A stretch of 64,000 nt of DNA from Patescibacteria group bacterium (GTDB lineage Bacteria; Patescibacteriota; Patescibacteriia; UBA1558; GWA2-36-10): contig JAQUKX010000003.1 in NCBI GenBank assembly GCA_028718865.1, forward strand, positions 33,214 through 97,213, given 5' to 3'. Both the position numbers and the translations under genes were made by a program. Under the pieces are notes generated by a model, which saw nothing but the letters and a program-made list of their open reading frames with translations, did no database searches and was not told the DNA's origin. This document shows, piece by piece, positions 19,202-60,521 of the stretch (the stretch's first letter is position 1; each line of letters opens with the position of its first letter).

Positions 19202-19600
19202 TTAGATATTTGAAATTTCTTTTCCCGTTCCCGTTTTAGACTTTTTTTTCAAAAAATATTTTTGAATCAAGTAACCCAAAAACGCAAAAAATAATCCAGA
19301 GACAAGAAAGGTAATGATAACAACTCCGGCCACATCCTCATTTGGATTCAGATAGCGCAAAGTTGCTATTACGCCACCAGCAACTATCTCGCCGAAAATA
19401 AATCCGCTAATTAATCCTGTTTTGGCCTGCTTTTCTGTAAGTTCATACGCAAAGCCTGCGCCAAACAAGACGATGCCGAAAAAAGCAAAAGCAGTCCAAG
19501 GCCAATCCCACCCATCAACAAGCATATTTCCAAAGAATGGAATCAGTAAAATGGCTATAGTTAAGAGCAATGGCCTAATAATAATTTTTGTATTTTGCAT
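19202..19600 (-). CDS. Hypothetical small membrane protein (cassette ORF).
   Basis: 132 aa with 3-4 TM helices. Its ATG lies inside the L-type site (GTGTTATG on the minus strand). Confidence 0.5.
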   Translation of the reverse strand: MQNTKIIIRPLLLTIAILLIPFFGNMLVDGWDWPWTAFAFFGIVLFGAGFAYELTEKQAKTGLISGFIFGEIVAGGVIATLRYLNPNEDVAGVVIITFLVSGLFFAFLGYLIQKYFLKKKSKTGTGKEISNI

Positions 19601-19640
19601 AACACACTGGGATATCTGAAGTTGCCGAATTTACTTTTTT
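19598..19640. repeat. Degenerate L-type cassette site.
   Basis: CATAACACACTGGGATATCTGAAGTTGCCGAAT; compare the L consensus CATACAACAGACAAGCGTATCTGAAGTCCCGAA. A degenerate R-type site lies at 19155-19190 (GAACCTCGCATCCGCTGTTAGCGAACG). Confidence 0.5.
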
Positions 19641-20569
19641 CTTTCTCGGTTGTGAATATATTTGTCCAAAGCTTCTTTTGAGCTTAGCCAATTACGGCCA
19701 TCCTTTTGAGCTTCTAGTTTACCCTGTCTAGTTAGTAGATTAAGATATTTGGCTGAGTATGGTGTGCCTTTAGCTAAGACGGCCAGGGACACTAATTTTT
19801 CTTTAGTGTTTTGAGGGGCTAAAGTTTTAAGATAAATATCAAAAGATCTTTCTACTGTTTGAGCGATGAAATTTACAAGCGGAGCATAATCACCCTTGTC
19901 GGCTTTGGCTAAAACATTGTAGTATTTTTTTCGATCATTTTTAAGAATGATAGCTAGAGGATAGCCAGCTTTCATTAATATCAAATTCATAGCCAGTCTA
20001 GCAGTGCGGCCATTGCCGTCAAAAAATGGATGAATATGCACTAGTTTATGGTGAAACAAGGCGGCTAGCTCAATAGTAGGTATATTTTTAAAATTGTTTT
20101 TTAACCAAGCTAGTAGTTGTTCCATTAATTTCGGTACCTCATAGGCATCAGGCGGATTATGCGCAGCGCCAGCTATATAGACATTAGCACTTCGGTATTT
20201 GCCAGCTTGATCTTTTTCAGTTTCTTGCACAATGATTTGATGCAAAGAGCGGATCAATCTTTCAGAGACGGTATTTTGTTTATCGCTATCAATCAAATCA
20301 TATAGATACTCCAGAGCCGCATAATGGTTTTTGGCTTCTAGATGATCTTTGAGCGGCTTGCCTTTGACAGTAATGCCCTCATTGATCACTAAAAAAGTTT
20401 CTTTTAAAGTCAAGCTATTACCCTCGATAGCGTTAGAATTATAGGTCATCTCCAGTCTAAATCTTTCTTGCAGTTTTTTGACCCCGGCTTTAGGCAAGGG
20501 CCGTAATTTATTTAGTTCTTTTTTTTTTGCTTCTAGTCTAGAAGCAATTTGTTTATTTAAGTAATTCAT
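19631..20569 (-). CDS. Fic/Doc-family protein (cassette ORF).
   Basis: 312 aa with the canonical Fic motif HPFFDGNGRTARL. Confidence 0.8.
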   Translation of the reverse strand: MNYLNKQIASRLEAKKKELNKLRPLPKAGVKKLQERFRLEMTYNSNAIEGNSLTLKETFLVINEGITVKGKPLKDHLEAKNHYAALEYLYDLIDSDKQNTVSERLIRSLHQIIVQETEKDQAGKYRSANVYIAGAAHNPPDAYEVPKLMEQLLAWLKNNFKNIPTIELAALFHHKLVHIHPFFDGNGRTARLAMNLILMKAGYPLAIILKNDRKKYYNVLAKADKGDYAPLVNFIAQTVERSFDIYLKTLAPQNTKEKLVSLAVLAKGTPYSAKYLNLLTRQGKLEAQKDGRNWLSSKEALDKYIHNRERKK

Positions 20570-20799
20570 ATAAATAATTTAATATGGTATATCTAACTTT
20601 TTATATTATACCATATTAAGAAAAAAAGTAAATTCGGCAATTTCAAGTGAAGCCAAGAAAAGAAATAGAGCTTTATAGTCTATTTCTTCTGGTGATGGTT
20701 GATGTTCAAAATGCTCGTTCATAATATTTTATTTAGTCCGCCTCTGGCGGGAACCGCATACGTGATGTTGGGCGATGTATTGCGCAGTTATTAATTTAT

Positions 20800-21080
20800 A
20801 ATAAATGCTCTTAGGGGATGAGGGAAGCGTGGGCTTCCCTCTGAGGAAGTATAGTACTGACCATGAGTTGGTCAGTTATTTCTCCTGCGGAAAAGTCGAT
20901 GGAGAAAATTGTGCCTTTTTCTCGGTGGCATGCAAGGAATGGGCGGACCGAGGTAGCCGAGCATACGCTGGTCAGCTCTCCGTGAGTACTCCTGTGCGAG
21001 ACGGAGGTAATTACGAGAAACCGCACCCTGTTTTTTCATAAGAAAACCTTTCCTGTTGGAGGTGAACGAACGTGGTCATC
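20800..21080. ncRNA. GC-rich (~55%) structured element with 12-bp terminal inverted repeats; candidate ncRNA of unknown class.
   Basis: CTTAGGGGATGA...TCATCCCCTAAG termini. Internal hairpins include GGGAAGC/GCTTCCC, CTGACCA/TGGTCAG, GAGAAAA/TTTTCTC and CTCCGT...ACGGAG. The two overlapping track ORFs here (20805..21041 plus, 20811..21026 minus) are mutually exclusive and are most likely artefacts of GC richness. Confidence 0.3.
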
Positions 21081-21340
21081 CCCTAAGAGTATTTAATTTT
21101 AAAAGTATCAACAAATAAGTTTAATCTCTATAAATATCATTGTCAATATAGAGCAATATTTTGCCTAACTGTCTTCAGTATGCGAAGTTGCCTCGCATAT
21201 TTCAGTGATATAATTTTACCATCACTGAAATAAAGAGGCAATTTGCACGAAACCCTAGCTTTTTAGGCTAGGGTGTAGTCGCATACTGGGTGTTGTGCGT
21301 TTTTTAATAAATATTTTTTAATTATATATTTTGATAGGTT

Positions 21341-22045
21341 TTAGTTGTTTTTTAATACACAAGCATTGTTTGATCTATAGTATCCAGAGTTACATGTCCA
21401 ACCATTGCCTAAATAATTTAAGCTAGCATTTGTTGGAGGCTGAACTTTTATACAACTATTGTTTGATCTATAAAAACCATAATCACATGTCCAACCGTTA
21501 CCTAGGTAATTTAATTTTGCATTTGCAGGAACATCGACAGCTACACAAGCATTGTTTGATCTATAGTATCCAGAGTTACATGTCCAACCATTGCCTAAAT
21601 AATTTAAGCTAGCATTTGTTGGAACAATGATAGTTTTTTTAGCGCTAAGATTTTGGTTTGTGGTATTTAAGTTTATACTTGAGCCGGAGTTTTTATTTTC
21701 ATATAATGATTTTCCTACGTAGTAGTCTGGGTCCGTTGTCCAAGTTGGCGTGTCCCAAGTTGATCCTTTTGTTCCGTAAGTTTTATTATATAAACCTTGG
21801 GATGATGTCCAGCTATAATTGTCATATTTTAATCCATTTGGATTACTACGAACATGTGGTTGGACATATGTGCCATTGCTTCTGTAGTAGCCTTTTACTG
21901 AAACATATGCGTCAGCATTGTTTATAAAAGTAGTTGAGCCAATAATTACTACTAAGGTAAAAATAGCTATAAATTTTTTGAATAAATTTTTCATAGTTTT
22001 GATAATAATATTTAGTATATTACCATAAAATTGTATTATTGTCAA
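21341..22045 (-). CDS. Secreted repeat protein with three ~31-aa Cys-containing tandem repeats (cassette ORF).
   Basis: Signal peptide; repeats P[TA]NA[SK]LNYLGNGWTC[ND][SY]G[YF]YRSNN[AS]C[VI]. The underlying 93-bp DNA repeats at 21350-21620 are nearly identical. Confidence 0.6.
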   Translation of the reverse strand: MTIIQFYGNILNIIIKTMKNLFKKFIAIFTLVVIIGSTTFINNADAYVSVKGYYRSNGTYVQPHVRSNPNGLKYDNYSWTSSQGLYNKTYGTKGSTWDTPTWTTDPDYYVGKSLYENKNSGSSINLNTTNQNLSAKKTIIVPTNASLNYLGNGWTCNSGYYRSNNACVAVDVPANAKLNYLGNGWTCDYGFYRSNNSCIKVQPPTNASLNYLGNGWTCNSGYYRSNNACVLKNN

Positions 22046-22244
22046 GGTTATTTTTTTGTCTACAAAAACCTATCAAATTCTTTATTATAAGAAAAATATT
22101 TATTAAATTGCGTACAACAGGCCAGGATATGAGAAGTCCCGAAACCTACTAATATGATACAATAAATCACCCTAAAGGGCGATGCATTATATTAGCAGTT
22201 GAGGGATTTTGATAAAAAAGTTGTAAATTTTAAGCTATTTTTAA

Positions 22245-22295
22245 TATTGACAAGTTTATTTAAATATGATATAATGATACATTAAATTCCGGCCA
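22245..22295 (+). promoter_or_regulatory. Consensus sigma70-like promoter for the GC-rich ORF 22328-22618.
   Basis: TTGACAAGTTTATTTAAATATGATATAATG (TTGACA-N17-TATAAT), followed by the SD AACAGGAGGGTAATACTGTG. Confidence 0.55.
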
Positions 22296-22327
22296 ACCTT
22301 AGTGTTAGTTAACAGGAGGGTAATACT

Positions 22328-22618
22328 GTGAAGAAAGTCGTTCTTATCATCATCGCGATCTTCGCGCTCCTGCTCGTTTCCGGTTGCGCCGGGACCAATT
22401 CGGTTCAGAACACGCCTGGTAGCAATGGCGTGGCTGGGTTCTGGTCTGGCCTCTGGCACGGCATGATCGCGCCGATCAGCTGGTTAATCTCCCTCTTCAA
22501 CTCCAACGTGAACATCTACGAGGTTCACAACAACGGTGGCTGGTACGACTTTGGTTTCGTGCTTGGCGCCGGGATTCTGGCCAGAGGGAGCCGATCCTCA
22601 CGTAGGCGCGAGCACTGA
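22328..22618 (+). CDS. Small GC-rich (~60%) lipoprotein; a self-contained expression unit inverted relative to neighbouring cassettes.
   Basis: MKKVVLIIIAIFALLLVSGCAG lipobox, GTG start with a strong SD, and a terminator hairpin ACTAGTTGTCCCTAACAACTAGTTTTCTTTT at 22630-22665. Confidence 0.6.
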   Translation: MKKVVLIIIAIFALLLVSGCAGTNSVQNTPGSNGVAGFWSGLWHGMIAPISWLISLFNSNVNIYEVHNNGGWYDFGFVLGAGILARGSRSSRRREH

Positions 22619-22734
22619 ACAAGATCATGGGTTTACTAGTTGTCCCTAACAACTAGTTTTCTTTTACATAAAAAATTTACAACTTTTTTATCTCATATCC
22701 GGTGTTGGGCGATGTTTATGAATTGACAAATTTA

Positions 22735-24328: not shown

Positions 24329-24617
24329 TTTCCTCTTTTACAATTAATTGATTTCTTATTTATTAAGCTATCGTAAGGTGCCCACAAATTAGGAGATGGT
24401 GGTCAGGGGTTACAAATTCCAAATTAATTACAGATAACACACCAGGATATCTGAAGTTGCCGAATAAATATCCGTGATAGAATAATTATAACATCACGGA
24501 TATTTAGAGGCAATTTGTAGTGGAACTCAAGAAAAAATAGAGCATAGTATAAAAATGGCCAAAATCAGATAAAAGTATATAAATTTTACCTAATATTAGC
24601 CAATATTTGCCATTTAT

Positions 24618-24716
24618 GCTTGACAGATTGTGGTATATATGGTATCATTATATATTACTTTGGGAATAAGCCTGAAGTAAGTACCTGAACAAAGTTTCAA
24701 TGAAAGGAAGCTGGTC
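24618..24716 (+). promoter_or_regulatory. Promoter and SD of the DGR target gene.
   Basis: GCTTGACAGATTGTGGTATATATGGTATCATTATAT (TTGACA ... TATCAT/TATAT) and the SD GAAAGGAAGCTGGTC-ATG. Confidence 0.5.
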
Positions 24717-25400
24717 ATGAGCAAGACGCAAGTGGTCGGCACGATGTCCGAATGGTCGGGCATTATCCGCGACATGTTCCGTCAGTTCGACGACGGCTCG
24801 TTGACCCTGGCTCACGCCAAGGCCTTCACCGAGCATCGGAACCCTTTCGCCATTTCGGACATCCAGTCCGAGTGGCAGGAGTTCTACCGCAAGTACTTCC
24901 GCATCAGCGTGGACTTCTCGGATGTCTCGATTCCTGCCGATCCCGGTGGCTTTGACCGCGTCATCTTCATCCCCAAGGGGTTGAAGCTCAACGATGTGCT
25001 CAGGGCCATCCGCAAGCAGTTCCCGGCTTGGAGCTACGAGGAGGATCTGGACAAGGACGTCATCGAGAACATCCGCAAGTCGGATCGCAACTACGCGATT
25101 CTGATTCGCGAGCGGGTGGAGGCCGATGAAGAGCTCAAGAACATCTCGGCCAACCAGCTGAAACAGCAGGGCGTCAACGCCATCACCCTGCTGGAGCGTC
25201 TGGTACTCGAGCTGAAGTACTGGTCCGAGACCGGCCAGCATCTCGATGTCAGCAACATCACCCTGTGCGCCGGTTCGCGCAGCCGCTTTGGTAGCGTGCC
25301 GAACGTCGACTGGAGCGCTGACTGCGGCAAGCTCCACATCTACTGGTTCAGCACTGGCCGTGCCAATGGCCGTCTGCGCGCTCGTCAGTCAGTTTCCTAA
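24717..25400 (+). CDS. DGR variable (target) protein with a C-terminal variable region; GC-rich (~60%).
   Basis: 227 aa. The last ~35 codons (…GSVPNVDWSADCGKLHIYWFSTGRANGRLRARQSVS) are encoded by the VR, which matches the TR at 25687-25802 except at TR adenines. The antisense track ORFs 24648..25337, 24752..24955, 25091..25339 and 25246..25434 are artefacts. Confidence 0.85.
   Translation: MSKTQVVGTMSEWSGIIRDMFRQFDDGSLTLAHAKAFTEHRNPFAISDIQSEWQEFYRKYFRISVDFSDVSIPADPGGFDRVIFIPKGLKLNDVLRAIRKQFPAWSYEEDLDKDVIENIRKSDRNYAILIRERVEADEELKNISANQLKQQGVNAITLLERLVLELKYWSETGQHLDVSNITLCAGSRSRFGSVPNVDWSADCGKLHIYWFSTGRANGRLRARQSVS
25271..25388 (+). other. DGR variable region VR1.
   Basis: 118 nt aligned to the TR with 16 substitutions, all at TR adenine positions (A>G ×10, A>T ×5, A>C ×1). 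A GC hairpin TCACCTCTTTCCCTTGAGGTGA lies just downstream of the IMH-like 3' end CTGCGCGCTCGTCAG. Confidence 0.85.
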
Positions 25401-25686
25401 CACTTCCAACTTTCACCTCTTTCCCTTGAGGTGAGATAGGAGTGTGCAATCACGCCCCGTGTGTGTCAATTCGTTTGACGCCCGGGGCTTTCTTTTTATA
25501 TAATAATCTCGGCTAATACAATCGGTCTTGATTTTTCAGGATAGCGATTTGCCATTTCTTTGGAAACTGCTTGTTAAGTTCTGGCTGGATTAAGTCCACA
25601 CATATTACAAACTCTTTGAAGTTTGACGATTAGTAATATTTATTTAATATCACTCGTCGGCCAAGATGGAATTTAGCAAAAATTGG

Positions 25687-25802
25687 GTTCGCGCAACCGC
25701 AATGGTAACGTGCCGAACGTCAACTGGAACGCTGACAACGGCAAGCTCCACATCAACTGGTACAACACTGACAATGCCAATGACCATCTGCGCGCTCGTC
25801 AG
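25687..25802 (+). other. DGR template region (TR).
   Basis: GGTTCGCGCAACCGCAATGGTAACGTGCCGAACGTCAACTGGAACGCTGACAACGGCAAGCTCCACATCAACTGGTACAACACTGACAATGCCAATGACCATCTGCGCGCTCGTCAG. It is rich in AAC codons, non-coding in context, and located just upstream of avd/RT. The track ORF 25666..26085 over it is spurious. Confidence 0.85.
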
Positions 25803-25838
25803 AAGTTTTCGACAAAAAAGTCCCGTTTTTACTCGGGA

Positions 25839-26198
25839 CTATTTGTTTAAATATTTTATCCACCCGCTCGCCATTTTCGAAATTTGCATCATTTTTTCAG
25901 CTAGGAGTAGGTATTTTTTGTCAGCGATTATTTTTAATTCCCACATTAGTCTAGTCAATCTTTTTGCTACTTCAATTTGTATCTTCAGTTTGGCAACCAC
26001 CACAGATTTTTTATCTCTAGCGGTCAAAGCCGCCAGTGTTCCTAATTCCAAACAATCAATGATAATATTTTCAATTTTTTGGTAAAGCCCAAAGCGTTCC
26101 ATTTTGGCAATTTGTTTTCGTCTGGTGTATAATTCCCGATATAAAGTAGTAAGCTCATGAATTATCGGCAAGCTAACATCGTTGGGGGGGGTAAACAT
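25839..26198 (-). CDS. avd: Avd-like accessory protein (four-helix-bundle family), tentative.
   Basis: 119 aa, basic/helical (…LYRELYTRRKQIAKMERFGLYQKIENIIIDCLELG…). Size and position between the TR and RT fit Avd. It is on the opposite strand and overlaps the RT start by ~40 nt. Confidence 0.45.
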   Translation of the reverse strand: MFTPPNDVSLPIIHELTTLYRELYTRRKQIAKMERFGLYQKIENIIIDCLELGTLAALTARDKKSVVVAKLKIQIEVAKRLTRLMWELKIIADKKYLLLAEKMMQISKMASGWIKYLNK

Positions 26199-27158
26199 AG
26201 TAGTCTTTTTTTAAAAATTATTTCTTTAGATAATTTGCTTTTATCATGGCGAGAATTTAAGCGTGGTAAAGCCACAAGGCGTGATATTCAGCAGTTTGCC
26301 TTTAATTTGGAAGAAAATATTTTTTGTCTTCACAAAGAGCTTGAAAATATGACGTATTGCCACAGTCCTTATCAGTCATTTTTCATCCAAGATCCAAAAA
26401 CTAGGCATATTCATAAGGCTGGCGTCAAAGATAGAGTTGTCCACCAAGCTTTATTTAGAGTATTATATCATTATTTTGATAAGAAGTTTATTTTTGATTC
26501 ATATTCTTGCAGGCTAAAGAAAGGTAATCATAAGGCTGTCTATCGCTTGGATAAGTTGATAAGAAAGGCCAGCCTTGATTATCAAAAACCAGTTTTTGCC
26601 TTAAAGTGCGATATCAGAAAATTTTTTGCCAACGTTGACCAAAAAATATTATTGTCTTTATTACAAAAAACTATTAAAGACCAAGATACTCTTTGGCTAG
26701 TTAAAAAAATTATTGATAGTTTTACATGTAGTCAAAATAAAGGTTTGCCTCTGGGCAATGTTACTAGTCAATTATTTTCCAATATTTATCTTAATGAGCT
26801 TGATTATTTTGTAAAACATACTTTAAGGCAAAAGTTTTATATCAGATATTGCGATGATTTTATTATTTTACATCAAGACAAAAAATATTTAGAAAATTTA
26901 GTTGCCACTTTAGCTAATTTTTTGCAAGCTAGACTAAAGTTAGATTTGCACCCTAATAAAATAACAATAAGGAAAGTAAATCAAGGTGTGGACTTTTTAG
27001 GTTATGTGGCTTTGACACGCTATCGAGTGTTGAGGACAAAAACAAAGAAGAGAATTTTGCGTCTTGCCAGTAGTAAAAATTTACAGTCTTATCTAGGAGT
27101 ATTACATCATGCCAATGCTTATGAATTAAAGCAGGTATTGATAAAAAAGATTGTTTAG
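26157..27158 (+). CDS. DGR-type reverse transcriptase.
   Basis: 333 aa; RT motifs HKAGVKDRVVHQAL (motif 2), LPLGNVTSQLFSNIYLNELD (DGR-specific [I/L]GxxxSQ in motif 4), RYCDDFII (YxDD) and GVDFLGY. Confidence 0.85.
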   Translation: MNYRQANIVGGGKHSSLFLKIISLDNLLLSWREFKRGKATRRDIQQFAFNLEENIFCLHKELENMTYCHSPYQSFFIQDPKTRHIHKAGVKDRVVHQALFRVLYHYFDKKFIFDSYSCRLKKGNHKAVYRLDKLIRKASLDYQKPVFALKCDIRKFFANVDQKILLSLLQKTIKDQDTLWLVKKIIDSFTCSQNKGLPLGNVTSQLFSNIYLNELDYFVKHTLRQKFYIRYCDDFIILHQDKKYLENLVATLANFLQARLKLDLHPNKITIRKVNQGVDFLGYVALTRYRVLRTKTKKRILRLASSKNLQSYLGVLHHANAYELKQVLIKKIV

Positions 27159-27299
27159 TTTTTTATATAATAGATAGCTCTATTTTTTCTTGAGTTCCAC
27201 CAGATATCCGGTGATAGACGATGTCACGACTATATAAAAAAACAAAAAAGTTTAGAAAAATATCTAAACTCTTTTTATTTGTATGAGTATTATTTTAGT

Positions 27300-27831: not shown

Positions 27832-27904
27832 AATTTTTTTCGTTAATTATTAATTCAATATGTATAATATATTATTATATTTTAAATGTAAATAGGACTT
27901 TATT

Positions 27905-28005
27905 ATGGCGTATAACAGACAAGCGTATCTGAAGTCCCGAATGAGCGGGGCGGTATAATTTCAGCGAAGCTGACCGCCCAAGTGAATGAGGGATTTGGGC
28001 GGAGC
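27905..28005. repeat. L-type cassette half-site.
   Basis: GGCGTATAACAGACAAGCGTATCTGAAGTCCCGAATGAGCGGGGCGGTATAATTTCAGCGAAGCTGACCGCCCAAGTGAATGAGGGATTTGGGCGGAGCTAG. Confidence 0.65.
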
Positions 28006-28020
28006 TAGTAAAATAAATAT

Positions 28021-28440
28021 TTAATTTTCTATTACACTGGTATATTTAAAATCCTTATAATTCAAACTCGTTTTACCTAATAGATCTTTTCTCATATTTA
28101 ATACTATTTCACCTATTACTTTTTGTCCATCTTCTGGATTAGGAGCCTTACCTTCCTCAGAGATGAGTAGTTGGACTAAACGATTAAGTGATTTTACTAC
28201 TTCATCTGAACAGTAGAGCCATGAGCTATATTGTTCTTCAAAGAATTTCTTTTTTAAATTTCCAGAAGTTGTATTACCAACAAAACCTTGTAAATATATA
28301 AGTAGCTTGGCATATTTTTCTTCTTTAAATTTAAGCATAGCTTCGGTCTTTTTTGATTTTATTCCGAAATAATATGTAAGCCAAGCGCCTAATCCGCCAG
28401 AAGCTAGAGAAGTTATTATTGTTAGAATGATATTATCCAT
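28021..28440 (-). CDS. Hypothetical membrane-anchored protein, located between an R and an L half-site.
   Basis: 139 aa with an N-terminal TM. Confidence 0.45.
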   Translation of the reverse strand: MDNIILTIITSLASGGLGAWLTYYFGIKSKKTEAMLKFKEEKYAKLLIYLQGFVGNTTSGNLKKKFFEEQYSSWLYCSDEVVKSLNRLVQLLISEEGKAPNPEDGQKVIGEIVLNMRKDLLGKTSLNYKDFKYTSVIEN

Positions 28441-28454
28441 AGTAGAAAATTAAA

Positions 28455-28500
28455 TATTTATTTTACGTCTAGCGGAGCCAGATACGCGGTGTTGTGTGCT
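28455..28500. repeat. R-type cassette half-site.
   Basis: GTCTAGCGGAGCCAGATACGCGGTGTTGTGTGCTG. Confidence 0.6.
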
Positions 28501-28504
28501 GTTG

Positions 28505-29069: not shown

Positions 29070-29290
29070 CAATGGCATACAACAGACCAGCGTATGCGAC
29101 GTCCCGAAACGAGCGGGGCGCTATACTTACGGCGGAGCCGAGCGCCCAAGCGAGTAAGGGATGTAGGCGTAAGCTTACACTTCTATAGGTTAAAATTAAA
29201 AGTGCCTAAGCTAATTTAAGCACTTTTAACTATAAATTTCAAATGTAGTATAGGTGTAAGCTAAGCTGCATACGCGGTGTTGTGTGATGT
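29070..29290. repeat. Compact complete cassette site.
   Basis: CATACAACAGACCAGCGTATGCGACGTCCCGAAACGAGCGGGGCGCTATACTTACGGCGGAGCCGAGCGCCC...GAGTAAGGGATGTAGGCGTAAGCTTACAC...AAAAGTGCCTAAGCTAATTTAAGCACTTTT...GCTGCATACGCGGTGTTGTGTGATG. The ends form a ~22-bp imperfect inverted repeat with extrahelical bases. Confidence 0.7.
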
Positions 29291-29430
29291 CGTGTTTTCC
29301 CTTATTTTAAGGGGATTTTAATTATTGACAAAATAACTAAAATATGCTATTATTATATGTTATGTGGCGCCGATGCCGTAACCCCCGCCTCAGGGATTGA
29401 GGTATATACTTCTCAGGAGGTTACTACACC

Positions 29431-29853
29431 ATGAAGCGCATGACCTACGTTCTTTCGATCGTGATCCTGCTGATCTCGTCCATGGCCTTCGCGGCCAGCC
29501 ACCCCATCGTCAACAAGGACGACACCGCCAAGGTTCCGAGCTGGGACTGGGTCGACGTCCTGAACCAGGAAGTCGTCTACAGCGGCAACAACGAGTTCAC
29601 CTACGGCGAGACCTGCGGCATCGAGTGCGGCGGCACCGTGACCGTCATCGGCGAGGTCGACGAGGGCAACGTCCTGGTACGCTACACCAGTCCCCATGGC
29701 CAGACCTACGGTACGCCTTGTCCCTCCGGCATCATCTTCCAGCTCTCCAAGGAGCGCTTCACGCTGATGACGGCGGAGTACCTGGCCAACATGAAGGCCG
29801 AGCAGGAGCACCGGCAGAAGATCGCCAACATCATCAAGGAAGCCGAAGGCTAG
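29431..29853 (+). CDS. GC-rich (~62%) secreted protein; inverted self-contained unit.
   Basis: Signal peptide MKRMTYVLSIVILLISSMAFAAS. Upstream TTGACA at 29327 and SD CTCAGGAGGTTACTACACC-ATG. Terminator TGAGCAAGTCATAAAACTGCTCACTCTTTTTTT. The overlapping track ORFs 29397..29873 and 29413..29877 are GC artefacts. Confidence 0.65.
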   Translation: MKRMTYVLSIVILLISSMAFAASHPIVNKDDTAKVPSWDWVDVLNQEVVYSGNNEFTYGETCGIECGGTVTVIGEVDEGNVLVRYTSPHGQTYGTPCPSGIIFQLSKERFTLMTAEYLANMKAEQEHRQKIANIIKEAEG

Positions 29854-30126
29854 GCCATCGGCGCCAGACCTGAGCAAGTCATAAAACTGCTCACTCTTTT
29901 TTTACTCAAAAATAAAATAACCTCGTAAGAGATTATTTATATAGAAAGGGGAAACACGATTTCACATAACATCGGGATTAAGGGAAGTTGCGACCGCAGG
30001 GAGCAATTTGGGAAAATGCCGAGCTGAGGCATTTTCCGTTTAAGCCCTGTTATACGCCCCGACGACTGAAAGGAGGAGAGCGCAGCGTGGTTCGACCGAA
30101 GGGAGAAAGTCCGCCGTAGCCCGCCG

Positions 30127-39248: not shown

Positions 39249-40502
39249 TTATGCCCCAAAAGCAAATATTTGTTGTTGTGAATATGTGGGTTCTTCTATT
39301 TCTTCTTCAATCTCACCATTTAACATTTTTATTAAGTTGGTACCTATGTGATAGCCAAGATTTACTGGCACGGCATTGCCAATTTGTTTATATTGTTGAG
39401 AAACTGAGCCAGAAAATTTCCAATTGTCTGGGAATGTTTGTATTCTTGCATATTCTCTCACAGTGAGAGGCCTTGTTTCTTCTGGGTGACATCTCTCTGT
39501 TTGTTTTTGTGCGGGGCTACAAGTTAAAGTCAATGAAGGTTCATCCCAAGATAGTCTTCTTGCCATTCCAGTTTTGCCACCGCCCATATAAAAACTTGCC
39601 CCCATGTATTCTTTCTGTAAGTTTTCCGGTAAATCTCTCCAATATCCACCTGGTGGTATAAGTTTTAGAATTTTTTTCTTTTTTTCAGGGTACTCTTGTC
39701 CTTCAGATTTTGGACATTTATCAAAAGCTTCTCGTAGTGAAATTATATAGTCTTTTTCTTTTGGGAATACTATCGGAATATTTAGATCATTTCTAACGCC
39801 TATAATAATTAGACGCTCTCTTTTTTGCGGAACATCTAAATATTGGGAACGGAGGACTTTGTATTTTACCTTATAACCAATTTCTTCTAAAACAGAAATC
39901 ATAGTTTTTAAAGTTCTTCCATTATCATGAGTTAGTAAGCCCCGCACATTTTCACCAATAGCTATTTTTGGCTGTACTTCTTTTACACATCTGGCAAATT
40001 CAAAAAACAATGTTCCTCTGATATCTTCAAAACCCATTTTTCTTCCAGCGTATGAAAAAGTTTGACAAGGAAAGCCGCCCTGGACAATATCAGCTTGTCC
40101 TTTTGTAAATTTTAAATTACGAATGTCATCTTCAATTACATTCCAATGAGGTTTGTTTATTCTTAAAGTTTGGCAGGCGTGTTTATCATATTCATTTAAT
40201 AGAACGTGTTGAATGCCCGCATTTTCCATTCCTAATGCAGTGCCCCCAGCTCCAGCAAATAACTCAATAGCGGTGTAAGGGGATGATTCTTTATTTTTTA
40301 AAATTTTAAATTTATTGCTTTTGGTTCCTTGTGTTTTATTTTGTACCCGTTTGATTTCTTCTAAGCTAAAAATGCGGGCATTTTTGTCATCCCTAAAAGA
40401 TTTTACAAGGCCTCTTTTGTCCCAACGCCTTATTGTATCGACTGAAATGTTTAGTAGATTTGCTGTTTGACCAGCAGTAAAATGTTTTTGTTTATTTTTC
40501 AT
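39249..40502 (-). CDS. DNA (cytosine-5)-methyltransferase with an N-terminal MerR-like HTH.
   Basis: 417 aa; N-terminal QTANLLNISVDTIRRWDKRGLV; MTase motifs LFAGAGG (I), GFPCQTFSYAGR (IV), ENVRGL (VI), QIGNAVPV (X). Confidence 0.85.
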   Translation of the reverse strand: MKNKQKHFTAGQTANLLNISVDTIRRWDKRGLVKSFRDDKNARIFSLEEIKRVQNKTQGTKSNKFKILKNKESSPYTAIELFAGAGGTALGMENAGIQHVLLNEYDKHACQTLRINKPHWNVIEDDIRNLKFTKGQADIVQGGFPCQTFSYAGRKMGFEDIRGTLFFEFARCVKEVQPKIAIGENVRGLLTHDNGRTLKTMISVLEEIGYKVKYKVLRSQYLDVPQKRERLIIIGVRNDLNIPIVFPKEKDYIISLREAFDKCPKSEGQEYPEKKKKILKLIPPGGYWRDLPENLQKEYMGASFYMGGGKTGMARRLSWDEPSLTLTCSPAQKQTERCHPEETRPLTVREYARIQTFPDNWKFSGSVSQQYKQIGNAVPVNLGYHIGTNLIKMLNGEIEEEIEEPTYSQQQIFAFGA

Positions 40503-40567
40503 ATAAAAAATGATAGAGGATATCTATCATTAGTATATCATAATAACCACTGCCTATGCAAAGGTTA

Positions 40568-41275
40568 TTATGTGGAAAAAGCCATTTGGAATAATTTAAA
40601 GTATTCCCTCATTTCTTTTTGGCTAAGATTATATTTATGTTTGTCCATTATAACCTTTGGCAATACTTCAAATAATTCTTGTAGAGCCTTTTCTCTTCCG
40701 GTTGCCAGCGCATAAAAACTAACGCCATCTATAACTCTTATTTTATTGTTGGAAGGGCGGCGTTTTCCATTCTTTTTATTATCTGAAGGCACGAAGGGCT
40801 TGTCATATTTTTTCTTTCCTTGTGGTATGATCTCTACAAAGTAACCAGTATAACCACTATATCTTTCCATTTTTAATTTTGATTTTATTGAATCATAAAT
40901 CTCAACTTTATGGTTGCCTTTTGTAGTATTAAATTTATTTTTTACTTCCGCAATAATTTTCATTTTTTCATTTATGACGTCTAAGCCGCCCCCTTTACCT
41001 AAATTTTGCCAGTCATTAACAGAACCTAAAATATCTTGGTGAAAATCACCAATAGCATTTTGCATTGTTTTTTGAATTTGTCTAGCTTTTTCTAATTCCA
41101 GCCAGTCTTTACAAGATATTGAGTGAGTTACACCATGAAACAAGGCCGAAAAAGGGTCTATTACATTTTTATACAATTTTTTTTCTGCGTCATTTTCTGC
41201 AGCATCTATTACTGTAATAACTTTTTTTACTGCAGCGCATAGATCTTTGTCTGATATAAATTTTAGATAAGGCAT
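40568..41275 (-). CDS. Candidate type II restriction endonuclease, partner of the C5-MTase.
   Basis: 235 aa directly downstream of the MTase in the same cassette. Possible PD-(D/E)xK arrangement GLDVINEKMKIIAEVK. Assignment is by context only. Confidence 0.4.
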   Translation of the reverse strand: MPYLKFISDKDLCAAVKKVITVIDAAENDAEKKLYKNVIDPFSALFHGVTHSISCKDWLELEKARQIQKTMQNAIGDFHQDILGSVNDWQNLGKGGGLDVINEKMKIIAEVKNKFNTTKGNHKVEIYDSIKSKLKMERYSGYTGYFVEIIPQGKKKYDKPFVPSDNKKNGKRRPSNNKIRVIDGVSFYALATGREKALQELFEVLPKVIMDKHKYNLSQKEMREYFKLFQMAFST

Positions 41276-42864: not shown

Positions 42865-42966
42865 TAAGATTGACAGAATGTAGTATTTATGATATAATAC
42901 ACTATTCGCCAAAAATAGACTAATTCTGGCTATTGGCGTGTACACCACAGTCAGGAGGTAAGAAAG
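42865..42966 (+). promoter_or_regulatory. Consensus promoter and SD for 42967-43266.
   Basis: GATTGACAGAATGTAGTATTTATGATATAATAC (TTGACA-N17-TATAAT) and AGTCAGGAGGTAAGAAAG-ATG. Confidence 0.55.
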
Positions 42967-43266
42967 ATGTACGGACCTCTTTTTCAAATCAGTGACGAGC
43001 TCGTTTGGAAGGACGAGCCTGCCCCAGGGCACGAAGAGGCTGGCCCCTTCAAGGTGGCCACTGTCGAGAACAACAACGACCCTGATGCTTGCGTATGCGG
43101 TGCATCCCGCAAGAACGGTTACATTCACTACGACGACGTCGAAGAAGGTGACTGCTGCGGTGAACTGCCGGCACAGTGGGTGACGATCACCTGCAACGGG
43201 ATCATCGTCAAGAACCGTGATGGCTCTGACGCCGTCTTCTGCTCTGACTGGTTCCGCAAGGCCTGA
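42967..43266 (+). CDS. Small GC-rich (~58%) Cys-rich protein; the cassette nearest the recombinase, inverted.
   Basis: 99 aa with 7 Cys (CVCG...CCGE...C...C). A palindrome CCCGGGTTAGAATAGGGTCTC follows the stop. The ORF 42992..43183 is spurious. Confidence 0.55.
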   Translation: MYGPLFQISDELVWKDEPAPGHEEAGPFKVATVENNNDPDACVCGASRKNGYIHYDDVEEGDCCGELPAQWVTITCNGIIVKNRDGSDAVFCSDWFRKA

Positions 43267-43377
43267 ACGGCCAGCCCTCTACGAGACCCGGGTTAGAATA
43301 GGGTCTCATTTTTTTACTTCAAAAAATTCCCAAACTAAAAAATAATCTCTAAAAGATTATTTATCTAATGAATAGAA

Positions 43378-43466: not shown

Positions 43467-44366
43467 ATGCTTATGAAGAAAAGCAATTTGTCCCGTTTTC
43501 CACGGGATATTGAGAGCAAGTCTCGTTTTTTAATTGATCTGTCAACTGGTCATCCTCTGGCCAATCTGGTCCAAGAGCTCATTATCAGAGGATTTTCTCG
43601 TCGTACTATCAAAAGCTATTTGTCGCAGAACCAGCGATTTTTGGACTGGTTAGGCTCTTCAGCAAAAGAAGTCAGTTCTCAAGACATCAAAAATTATCTG
43701 CTTTATCTAAAATCTCAAGGCCAGAGCAATACTTCTCTCAACCAGACTATTTCCGCTCTAAAATTTTATTACAGCCAAATCTTAAAGAGGAAGCTGTTTT
43801 TTAATATCAAGCGGCCAAAAAAAGAAAAATTTTTACCGGTGGTTTTGACCAGAAATGAAGTTATAAAAATTATCAATGCTTCTTCTAATTTAAAACATAA
43901 ACTACTTTTGTCTTTACTCTATGGCTCAGGACTAAGAGTGTCTGAAGTAGTCAAAATAAAAATCAGTCATTTGGATCTAGCTAGCAAAAGCTTGTTGGTC
44001 AAAGATAGCAAAGGCGCCAAAGATAGATATACATTATTAAGTGGTATTAGCTTGAAATTTTTAAATTTATACTTAGCACGATTGCCACGGGAGCAAAAAT
44101 ATTTGTTTGCCGGTCAGTCGGAACAAAGCCGATTAAGTCAGCGTAGTGCTCAAAAAATATTTGAGCATGCTTTGGAAAAGTCCGGCTTAAAAAAAGAAGC
44201 GTCTTGCCATAGTTTGCGTCATTCTTTTGCCACGCACCTCTTAGAAAAGGGAGTAGACATCCGCCATATTCAAAAATTATTAGGCCATCAGAATATCAAG
44301 ACTACTGAAATCTATACTCAAGTAGTCAGAGATTTTTGGCAGGGCATCAGGAGTCCTTTGGATTAG
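43467..44366 (+). CDS. Tyrosine site-specific recombinase with an IntI-like C-terminus (integron-integrase-like).
   Basis: 299 aa; catalytic R...HxxR...Y (SLRHSFATHLLEKGVDIRHIQKLLGHQNIKTTEIYTQVVRDFWQGIRSPLD). The ending GIRSPLD parallels GVRSPLD of IntI1. Its length is Xer-like, so the IntI-specific extra domain may be absent; this is not resolved. Confidence 0.7.
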   Translation: MLMKKSNLSRFPRDIESKSRFLIDLSTGHPLANLVQELIIRGFSRRTIKSYLSQNQRFLDWLGSSAKEVSSQDIKNYLLYLKSQGQSNTSLNQTISALKFYYSQILKRKLFFNIKRPKKEKFLPVVLTRNEVIKIINASSNLKHKLLLSLLYGSGLRVSEVVKIKISHLDLASKSLLVKDSKGAKDRYTLLSGISLKFLNLYLARLPREQKYLFAGQSEQSRLSQRSAQKIFEHALEKSGLKKEASCHSLRHSFATHLLEKGVDIRHIQKLLGHQNIKTTEIYTQVVRDFWQGIRSPLD

Positions 44367-58025: not shown

Positions 58026-59605
<1,580 letters not shown>

Positions 59606-59816
59606 AGGAGTTATTTGTCGGCAATCCTCACGATTGACCGATAGTCGACCTTCCCTTTTTGGGAAGGAAATAGGCTAAAAACCTTCACTTCTAAGTTATT
59701 AAAATATTACCCCGCTAGCAGCGGGGTCTTTTATTAAAAAGGCTATTACTTCTTGTCAAAAATTAGTTTTTCTGTTATTATCCCCCTTGTTATGAAATTT
59801 TAAATTATTGTTTTTA

Positions 59817-59893
59817 GGGCATGTAGCTCAGCTGGTTAGAGCACTACACTGATAATGTAGGGGTCGGAGGTTCGAGTCCTCCCATGCCCACCA
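59817..59893 (+). tRNA. tRNA-Ile (anticodon GAT).
   Basis: GGGCATGTAGCTCAGCTGGTTAGAGCACTACACTGATAATGTAGGGGTCGGAGGTTCGAGTCCTCCCATGCCCACCA. Confidence 0.85.
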
Positions 59894-59966
59894 GGAATAA
59901 TTGTGTAATAGCACAATTGTTAATTGATGAGTGCTATTAACTTATTAATCAATTATGCAATTAAGC

Positions 59967-60051
<85 letters not shown>

Positions 60052-60074
60052 TAAAACATTCGCTTCGCTCAGGT

Positions 60075-60260
60075 TTATGGCGCAACCATTATATTTACAT
60101 CTGGTAGCGCCGTGAACTCGAGTCGCAAAGCGACGAGTAGTTCACGGGGTGTGGCGCCCGCGCCCGGTACGCCTACGGCGATAGCCGTGGCGGACGGGCA
60201 GTTTTCGCCAAAGACGAACCAGCCTCTGGCTGGTGCTAGCGTAAACGCATCATAAAACAA
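60075..60260. other. GC-rich (~62%) structured non-coding element inside the tRNA cluster.
   Basis: Long hairpin CCGTGAACTCGAGTCGCAAAGCGACGAGTAGTTCACGG, palindrome GGCGCCCGCGCC and hairpin CCAGCCTCTGGCTGG. A 5S-like GGCGATAGCCGTGGCGG motif is present, but the overall order does not fit 5S. The track ORF 60075..60260 minus is spurious. Confidence 0.3.
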
Positions 60261-60289
60261 ATATAAATTGTAATTTAATAAATTAACTT

Positions 60290-60366
60290 CGGGGTGTGGC
60301 GCAGTTGGCTAGCGCGCGTGCTTTGGGAGCATGAGGTCGGAGGTTCGAGTCCTCTCACCCCGACCA
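60290..60366 (+). tRNA. tRNA-Pro (anticodon TGG).
   Basis: CGGGGTGTGGCGCAGTTGGCTAGCGCGCGTGCTTTGGGAGCATGAGGTCGGAGGTTCGAGTCCTCTCACCCCGACCA. Confidence 0.85.
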
Positions 60367-60445
60367 ATTTAATACAATAGTTTAATAGCGTAATAGAATA
60401 ATTGCTATTAACCTATTAATCAATTATACAATTCTCAATTAGTTC

Positions 60446-60521
60446 GCGGGTGTCGTATAGTGGCTCATTATGTCAGCCTTCCAAGCTGAAGAGGGCGGTT
60501 CGATTCCGCTCACCCGCTCCA
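60446..60521 (+). tRNA. tRNA-Gly (anticodon TCC).
   Basis: GCGGGTGTCGTATAGTGGCTCATTATGTCAGCCTTCCAAGCTGAAGAGGGCGGTTCGATTCCGCTCACCCGCTCCA. Confidence 0.85.

Follow-up and report, generated by a model that had tools for sequence, protein, structure and literature searches.

A conserved end-pairing frame around the orphan cargo of a probable integron cassette from a Patescibacteria bacterium

The GC-rich element at positions 20800-21100 of the window (the whole stretch of 64,000 nucleotides that was analysed) is mainly a bracket, i.e. a pair of complementary ends around a variable interior, and is neither a new RNA gene nor a jumping element. Probably, though by no means certainly, it serves as cargo in a single gene cassette of a chromosomal integron, the host being a Patescibacteria (CPR) bacterium, and is built on a frame that is shared with a small family of cassettes. 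The position of the cassette is fairly ordinary and its cargo is an orphan; the conserved frame with pairing ends is the unusual part. Here we present the integron context of the element, the conserved frame with its relatives, the candidate cargo and the other readings that were weighed. The coordinates of the features are summarized in Table 1.

The element is located within an array of attC sites which spans approximately 19.6-43.4 kb and terminates at a Xer/IntI-like recombinase. attC sites are composed of an inverse core RYYYAAC and a core GTTRRRY with internal pairing of L'' and L'. Between 19.6 and 42.8 kb, 13 L'-R' boxes (..GCATACGCGGTGTTGTG..) alternate with 12 R''-L'' boxes (..CATACAACAGAC.AGCGTATGCGA..); the pattern of the L'-R' box gave 11 matches, compared with 0.03 expected. 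The flanks of the element, described in the sequence-only reading as array repeat sites, are repeat sites of the attC type, with attC core boxes on both sides, and the array adjoins a divergent tyrosine recombinase of the integron type. The recombinase passes the NCBIfam model labelled 'tyrosine recombinase/integron integrase' and scores 205.6 bits against the integron integrase model TIGR02249, under the cutoff of 265. The ORFs of the cassettes are mostly encoded on the minus strand and the recombinase on the plus strand. Divergent orientation of integrase and cassette ORFs is the usual layout of integrons, and because of this divergence the minus strand of the window is taken as the top strand of the integron. 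Cassettes of the array encode, among others, Fic, GNAT, NUDIX, EamA and SDR proteins and an Eco47II endonuclease with a C5 methylase (39249-41275). An identical copy of the neighbouring Fic protein, MDD5749444.1, comes from a Patescibacteria metagenome-assembled genome (MAG).

As a whole, positions 19591-43467 form a complete integron-like locus with an array of about 24 kb and at least 13 attC sites, and a similar array with the same layout is present in locus L044 (contig CAYOCJ010000001.1). A comparison of the element with the attC sites of the array gave no significant similarity except for one exact 13-mer, GCATACGCTGGTC, which is found in the interior of the element (20961-20973) and in inverted orientation at 29085-29097. 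The latter positions are the conserved L box of the attC sites of the array, and four more attC sites match at 12 of the 13 positions. This match could be a recombination scar or a product of chance (E 0.65 against the whole window).

Table 1. Positions in the window of the features at the element and of selected features of the surrounding array
Feature	Positions	Strand	Details and basis
Cargo part of the cassette	20774-21162	-	between R' and R'' core sites; attC half-site families
Upstream attC, R' core GTTAGGC	21169-21163	-	GCCTAAC at 21163-21169 on +
Own attC, R'' core GCCCAAC	20773-20767	-	GTTGGGC at 20767-20773 on +
Neighbouring attC	21157-21303		R'' GCCTAAC, L'' CAGTATGCG, L' CGCATACTG, R' GTTGTGC
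Putative sigma-70-like promoter	21118-21146	-	TTGACA-17 nt-TAAACT; consensus scan, 10/12 matches
P1 5' arm	21076-21102	-	perfect core 21076-21089 (CTCTTAGGGGATGA), AT-rich imperfect extension to 21102
Shine-Dalgarno (SD)-like sequence AGGAAAGG	21047-21054	-	7 nt before the ATG of the 55-aa ORF; read from the sequence
Candidate cargo ORF, 55 aa	20872-21039	-	very basic, MKKQGAVSRNYLRLAQEYSRRADQRMLGYLGPPIPCMPPRKRHNFLHRLFRRRNN; ORF list; ORF slot of the family
Hairpin CTCCGT/ACGGAG	20977-20982 / 21000-21005		
Hairpin GAGAAAA/TTTTCTC	20902-20908 / 20917-20923		
Perfect 8-bp hairpin ACTGACCA/TGGTCAGT	20856-20876 (20856-20863 / 20869-20876)	-	overlaps the stop codon of the 55-aa ORF
Sub-terminal hairpin GAGGGAAGC-CCAC-GCTTCCCTC	20820-20841 (20820-20828 / 20833-20841)	-	abuts the P1 3' arm, can stack on P1
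P1 3' arm	20795-20821	-	perfect core 20808-20821 (TCATCCCCTAAGAG), then U-rich CAUUUAUUAU
78-aa ORF	20805-21041	+	longest ORF over the element
DGR target ORF	24717-25400	+	variable repeat 25272-25388
DGR template repeat	25686-25802		
DGR reverse transcriptase	26157-27158		
Tyrosine recombinase (IntI-like)	43467-44366	+	234.9 bits, NCBIfam NF040815, cutoff 220

Terminal inverted repeats of 12 bp around a GC-rich segment full of nested hairpins had been reported from the letters alone. The repeat is confirmed: the window contains two copies of CTTAGGGGATGA and no more, one per strand (20810-20821 on the plus and 21076-21087 on the minus strand), the perfect match extends even to 14 bp, and an imperfect extension leads to arms of 27 nt with 85% complementarity. 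By simple arithmetic a perfect inverted repeat of 14 bp within 400 nt has a chance expectation of about 3e-4. The elevated GC content is equally borne out, with 51% GC in the bracketed segment versus roughly 33% in the genome and, along the sequence, values of 0.45-0.53 inside the element versus 0.2-0.38 in the flanks. Further GC-rich islands occur in the AT-rich background of the array (22300-22650, 24650-25400, 29370-29880 and 42950-43300), and the GC content of the cargo follows that of the host in the relatives described below. The high GC content is most simply explained by horizontal acquisition from a GC-richer donor, as is that of further GC-rich cassettes of the array, and not as a signature of RNA structure.

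All four hairpins named in the sequence-only reading exist, and beyond the bracket the interior is only marginally above shuffled sequences, so that the segment can be called full of hairpins only in part. The whole element folds with z-scores of -5.4 on the plus and -5.8 on the minus strand relative to shuffles (-6.3 and -4.5 in a further run), values which indicate no preference for the plus strand. After removal of the terminal stem and the adjacent hairpin, the remaining 234 nt reach z -2.3 on the minus strand, where 1 of 100 shuffles folds as well, and z -1.6 on the plus strand; the fold signal thus comes mostly from the bracket. The interiors of the three relatives have z-scores of about 0. 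The choice of a strand by the number of G.U pairs (13 on the plus and 3 on the minus strand) was rejected, as this number follows the G-rich composition of the plus strand.

Positions 20600-21350 have no match in Rfam (Rfam 15), either at the gathering threshold or with the limit relaxed to E<=10, and ARAGORN detected neither tRNA nor tmRNA on the element; the check indicates no known family and lends no support to an RNA gene. The earlier statement that no tmRNA or RNase P motifs could be recognised is in agreement with the ARAGORN result and with inspection by eye, in which RNase P (CR-I/CR-V, P4 pairing), tmRNA, SRP RNA, 6S RNA, T-box, cobalamin box and domain V of group II introns did not fit. 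The layout of a retron msr/msd did not fit by eye either, and the reverse transcriptase closest to the element (26157-27158) is part of a diversity-generating retroelement (DGR) 5 kb away. Among phage and plasmid records blastn found no genuine match. Scans of viral contigs with 16-20-mers gave matches at chance level, which blastn did not extend past the seed, and scans of viral contigs with the arm pattern found none. Six degenerate seeds derived from the peptide of the 78-aa frame detected no relative of the interior in 185,579 species genomes (GTDB) or in JGI metagenomes; in both, the matches stayed at seed level and were due to chance.

Relatives were found through the frame. Locus L023 (1847-2144) was detected among the arrays of other Patescibacteria MAGs when genomes were scanned for the attC-box pattern. 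A metagenome scan with the pattern CTCTWAGGGGA-N(250-280)-TCCCCTWAGAG delivered six loci, two of which, L039 (866-1159) and L042 (753-1030), are cassettes between attC core sites. The other four were not accepted into the family: L037 is AT-rich and lies in a non-integron context, L038 contains self-palindromic repeats, L040 is of low complexity, and L041 resembles ordinary coding sequence, for which reason its match to the pattern is probably due to chance. Locus L037 (319-597) carries a perfect inverted repeat of 19 bp with the same core (GTACTCTTAGGGGACTTCT) around 241 nt on its AT-rich contig, and the repeat adjoins three iteron-like direct repeats (TTACAACAATTCGCATACAA).

The cassettes of L023, L039 and L042 are about 375-400 nt in length and share their end sequences with the cassette of the window; in L023 the ends carry CCTCTAAGGGGA ... 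TCCCCTTAGAGG around an interior unlike that of the window. In an alignment of the four whole cassettes identity amounts to 51-70% in the flanks and to 32-47% in the interiors, the latter being the level expected of unrelated sequences, both between the window and its relatives and among the relatives. Homology between the members ends at the arms. The frame common to the four members consists of a promoter-like site, a 5' arm CTCTWAGGGGA, a Shine-Dalgarno site (SD) with ATG, a small ORF, a hairpin and a 3' arm. The hairpin is of the GAGGGAAG/CTTCCCTC type in all four; its counterparts are GAGGGAAAG/CTTTCCCTC in L039, GAGAGAAG/CTTCTCTC in L042 and GAGGCA/TGCCTC in L023. The 3' arm is followed by GAUUUU in L023, L039 and L042 and by CAUUUAUU in the window. 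The hairpin at 20856-20876 is peculiar to the window, as nothing in the relatives aligns with it. On the minus strand, the promoter-like site of the window is located upstream of the inverted repeat, outside the 5' arm; aligned sites are TTGACA-17-TAAAGT in L042 and TTGACT-17-TATTTT in L023, and the -35 of L039 is poor, so that such sites outside the 5' arm are clear, by consensus match only, in three of the four members.

For the analysis of covariation, the arms and the hairpin of the four sequences were aligned with the interior removed. Stem and hairpin comprise 25 pairs with 98% of the cells paired across the four sequences. Both sides have changed in five pairs, two in the stem (U-A to A-U and U-A to C-G) and three in the hairpin. 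None of 500 shuffles reached the values observed for stem and hairpin, and controls with a slid register were 46-62% paired. With four sequences this covariation is suggestive, not overwhelming. The end-to-end stem comprises 14-20 bp, and its uninterrupted part measures 14 bp in the window versus about 19 bp in the relatives. Wobble pairs favour an RNA of the sense strand in three members, but not in the window, where the single stem mismatch reads A.C in the sense orientation and G.U in the opposite one. The proposal of a structured non-coding RNA is therefore upheld for the terminal stem and the hairpin, which are conserved and covary, and fails for the interiors, none of which is conserved and which in the window is not strongly folded. 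As a new RNA gene the element finds no support, given the negative Rfam search, an interior unconserved in the relatives and the marginal fold.

Two ORFs overlap the element on opposite strands, one of 78 aa on the plus and one of 71 aa on the minus strand, and it holds that they cannot both be real. Both cross the arm and the hairpin, which are conserved and non-coding, and both are probably not genes. A protein search with the 78-aa ORF gave no candidates; the matches of the 71-aa ORF were two long repetitive proteins over several short stretches and were judged compositional. The SD, the ATG and the ORF slot on the minus strand correspond to the architecture of the relatives, for which reason the minus strand is regarded as the sense strand, with the 55-aa ORF in the slot of the family. 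The ORFs of L042, L039 and L023 (62, 64 or 69 aa) encode two hydrophobic predicted membrane helices each and are preceded by a strong SD (AAGGAGG in L042, AGGAGG in L023, AAGGAG in L039); the SD of the window is weaker. The ATG follows the 5' arm at an offset of 50 nt in the window, compared with 38-40 nt in the relatives. The stop codon of the 55-aa ORF is located 30 nt before the conserved hairpin, and the ORFs of the relatives end just before it.

The source pipelines annotated two of the three small ORFs of the relatives as genes. The cargo peptides of the four members show no mutual similarity. The three membrane peptides belong to no Pfam family, and a profile built from them recovered nothing but two of its own three members. 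For the 55-aa ORF there is no homologue, no Pfam family and no gene call in the source record, and a hydrophobic stretch is absent from every frame of the element in the window. AlphaFold predicted two helices for the 55-aa ORF with a mean pLDDT of 69, which is not decisive. Its codon positions are not coding-like (G1 0.16, C1 0.41, by complement), its codon periodicity is not significant at 55 codons, and a random sequence of this composition has, by arithmetic, a chance of about 7% of containing an open frame of 55 codons. Against a coding cargo stand its orphan status, its non-coding-like composition, its basic character where the ORFs of the relatives are hydrophobic, and the weaker SD.

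These properties of the 55-aa ORF leave room for a non-coding cargo in the same frame, i.e. a cassette with the same promoter and the same stem in which the ORF slot is held by a structured RNA or by a decayed remnant. On the minus strand the interior of the window reaches z -2.3 and is equalled by 1 of 100 shuffles, versus values around 0 in the relatives; it contains two perfect hairpins of at least 7 bp where arithmetic predicts about 0.3; the ORF is moreover an orphan, very basic, atypical at the first codon position and uncalled in the source annotation. Because the interior of the window folds slightly better than shuffles and those of the relatives do not, this reading retains some weight. 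Against it, Rfam has no match at E<=10, an SD, an ATG and a stop codon occupy the ORF position of the family, and a z-score of -2.3 is weak for an RNA of 234 nt; the interior has no homologue in GTDB species genomes, JGI metagenomes or phage and plasmid records. We consider a non-coding cargo rather unlikely. The plus-strand ORF of 78 aa, antisense to the orientation of the family, would be the real gene in another reading. No other ORF of the element is as long, G is frequent at its first codon position (0.41), its amino-acid composition is ordinary and a TATAAT is located at 20797-20802, yet it has neither a properly spaced -35 nor an SD before its ATG, no homologue was found, and its periodicity falls short of significance (chi-square p about 0.1, arithmetic). 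It would furthermore encode protein through the arm and the hairpin, which are non-coding in all relatives, and in L042 the antisense strand is closed by stop codons, as read from the sequence. This makes it a distinctly doubtful gene.

The arms might alternatively act at the DNA level, as an inverted repeat forming a cruciform or a single-strand hairpin by which the cargo is looped out in integron recombination, as an inversion switch of the inverton type, or as the site of cargo exchange. Recombination at the arms would in that case account for a conserved frame around unrelated interiors. Almost every gene of this array and of L044 is positioned between inverted repeats of at least 12 bp, some of which clearly act in DNA, since a promoter lies inside them; the homology of the family stops at the arms, and the arm core TTAGG/CCTAA resembles the R boxes GTTAGGC/GCCTAAC. 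On the other hand, the hairpin is found at the R''-proximal end, and the ORF has the same orientation relative to the promoter, in all four members, so that only one orientation and no inversion is seen. The arms read CTT/AAG where the integron core reads GTT/AAC, and the arm of L023 changes without matching its R box. The G.U wobbles in the stems of three members become A.C mismatches on the other DNA strand, and a promoter outside the arms implies that both arms are transcribed. A function at the DNA level appears improbable. Least of all is the element expected to be a miniature inverted-repeat transposable element (MITE), the mobile alternative offered in the sequence-only reading, in which it would be a non-autonomous transposon. 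The perfect terminal inverted repeats of 14 bp, the length of about 280 bp and the want of a convincing gene fit such an element. The search for further copies with the same termini, however, found only this one in the 64 kb of the window; a target-site duplication is absent, as the flanks continue the inverted repeat and not a direct repeat; the sole relatives occupy the same position of homologous cassettes with different interiors; and six interior seeds found nothing in 185,579 species genomes. A MITE is accordingly given a very slight chance.

In the favoured reading as the cargo of an integron cassette, the order on the top strand of the integron (minus strand of the window) would be the R' core, the sigma-70-like promoter, the 5' arm CUCUUAGGGGAUGA, about 35 nt, and the SD with AUG, followed by the small ORF, its stop codon, the conserved GC hairpin, the 3' arm UCAUCCCCUAAGAG with its U-rich tail, about 30 nt, and R''. 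The unit may be transcribed from its own promoter, as its consensus match suggests, and because this promoter-like site lies outside the 5' arm, both arms would be included in the transcript. By pairing they would close an mRNA of approximately 300 nt like a clamp, and the stem would stack upon the hairpin near the 3' end. Such a clamp may protect the ends of the RNA, serve as a processing site or insulate the message from neighbouring attC structure. Stems of 17-20 bp are of the kind cut by RNase III. Predicted accessibility of the SD hardly changes between folds with and without the stem and shows no consistent effect, and a translational lock of the hok type is unsupported for this reason. 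The clamp would most likely affect the stability or the processing of the cassette mRNA, somewhat in the manner of type I toxin mRNAs.

Chromosomal integrons are known to hold cassettes that bring a promoter along, among them toxin-antitoxin modules and some others. The element resembles them in its attC flanks, the divergent tyrosine recombinase, a single small cargo, an internal promoter-like site and a foreign GC content, and differs in the non-coding frame common to cassettes with unrelated ORFs in four metagenomic genomes and in its CPR host. A limited full-text literature search returned no published description of such an end-pairing bracket. RNase III processing stems bracket rRNAs and some phage or operon mRNAs; they are similar in the long-range duplex of 17-20 bp flanking a functional RNA, whereas the unit here is a mini-gene of about 260 nt. 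MITEs share the terminal inverted repeats and the length of about 280 bp, but the element is single-copy, fixed in its cassette position and variable in its interior.

Type I toxin mRNAs are 150-400 nt in length, encode a peptide of 20-60 aa and combine a 5'-3' long-distance interaction with a 3' stem-loop (PMC8594479). Like hok/Sok and AapA/IsoA (T1TAdb), the units described here are short (about 300 nt), apparently self-promoted, carry an ORF of 55-69 aa and have, by predicted pairing, both the end-to-end interaction and the 3' stem-loop. They differ in that the ORF of the window is basic without a hydrophobic stretch, and in that the peptides of the relatives exceed 60 aa with two predicted membrane helices; a small hydrophobic peptide of 20-60 aa is thus not present. 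The element and its relatives have no sequence similarity to any known family. Neither an antisense RNA gene nor a conserved antisense promoter was found, the opposite strand having only the lone TATAAT at 20797-20802 and nothing conserved in the relatives. Since the ORF is not hydrophobic, an antisense RNA is not evident and the predicted accessibility of the SD is independent of the stem, membership among the type I toxins is not claimed.

Several other features of the window were recorded. Some attC sites contain whole genes in their central loop (19591-20778, 22106-22715, 24426-27224, 27904-28502 and L042:1-724), which to our knowledge is unusual for attC sites. The loop genes measure 0.4-2.8 kb and are closed by a near-perfect stem of 21-31 bp (for example 22211-22231 / 22672-22692 and 24513-24543 / 27177-27207), and the R''-L'' and L'-R' halves pair as usual around them. 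Perfect inverted repeats of 12 bp or more flank nearly all ORFs of L044, where a reverse transcriptase is located beside the integrase. One attC loop of the window harbours the DGR (24717-27158), in which 16 of 16 mismatches between the repeats fall on adenines of the template copy. A strong promoter TTGACA-17-TATAAT is repeated at 22228-22284, 29306-29362 and 42870-42900 and is followed by GC-rich small ORFs of the plus strand (22328-22618, 29397-29873 and 42968-43267), antisense to the direction of the array. The neighbouring cassette at 21341-22045 encodes a protein of 234 aa with three repeats of 31 aa (DNA period 93 nt, 78-100% identical) that hold the cysteine motif ..NYLGNGWTC..GYYRSNN.C... 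Outside the array, positions 58026-60521 contain the 16S rRNA gene followed by tRNA-Ile, tRNA-Phe, tRNA-Pro and tRNA-Gly and then protein genes. No 23S rRNA gene was found in the remaining 4 kb of the window past this block, and the rRNA genes are probably unlinked.

What is retained from the analysis is a conserved, covarying frame with pairing ends across cassettes with unrelated small ORFs in four uncultivated genomes. As a tentative further step, the frame may be a portable chassis for expression and stability in the integrons of CPR bacteria, into which unrelated micro-genes are swapped or within which they evolve extremely fast, the arms serving both as an RNA clamp and as boundaries of cargo exchange. 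Many of the cargos of such a chassis would be small membrane peptides, which could be toxins resembling type I that stabilise the array, and it is conceivable, with a similarly low degree of confidence, that the cargo of the copy in the window is a non-coding RNA or a new micro-protein of basic character. Small genes of CPR bacteria are routinely missed by annotation. If the stem is an mRNA clamp or a processing site, it would illustrate how cassettes that bear a promoter achieve expression and insulation inside highly structured attC arrays, and CTCTWAGGGGA ... TCCCCTWAGAG beside a hairpin of the GAGGGAAG type would provide a handle for finding micro-protein and toxin cassettes in CPR bacteria.
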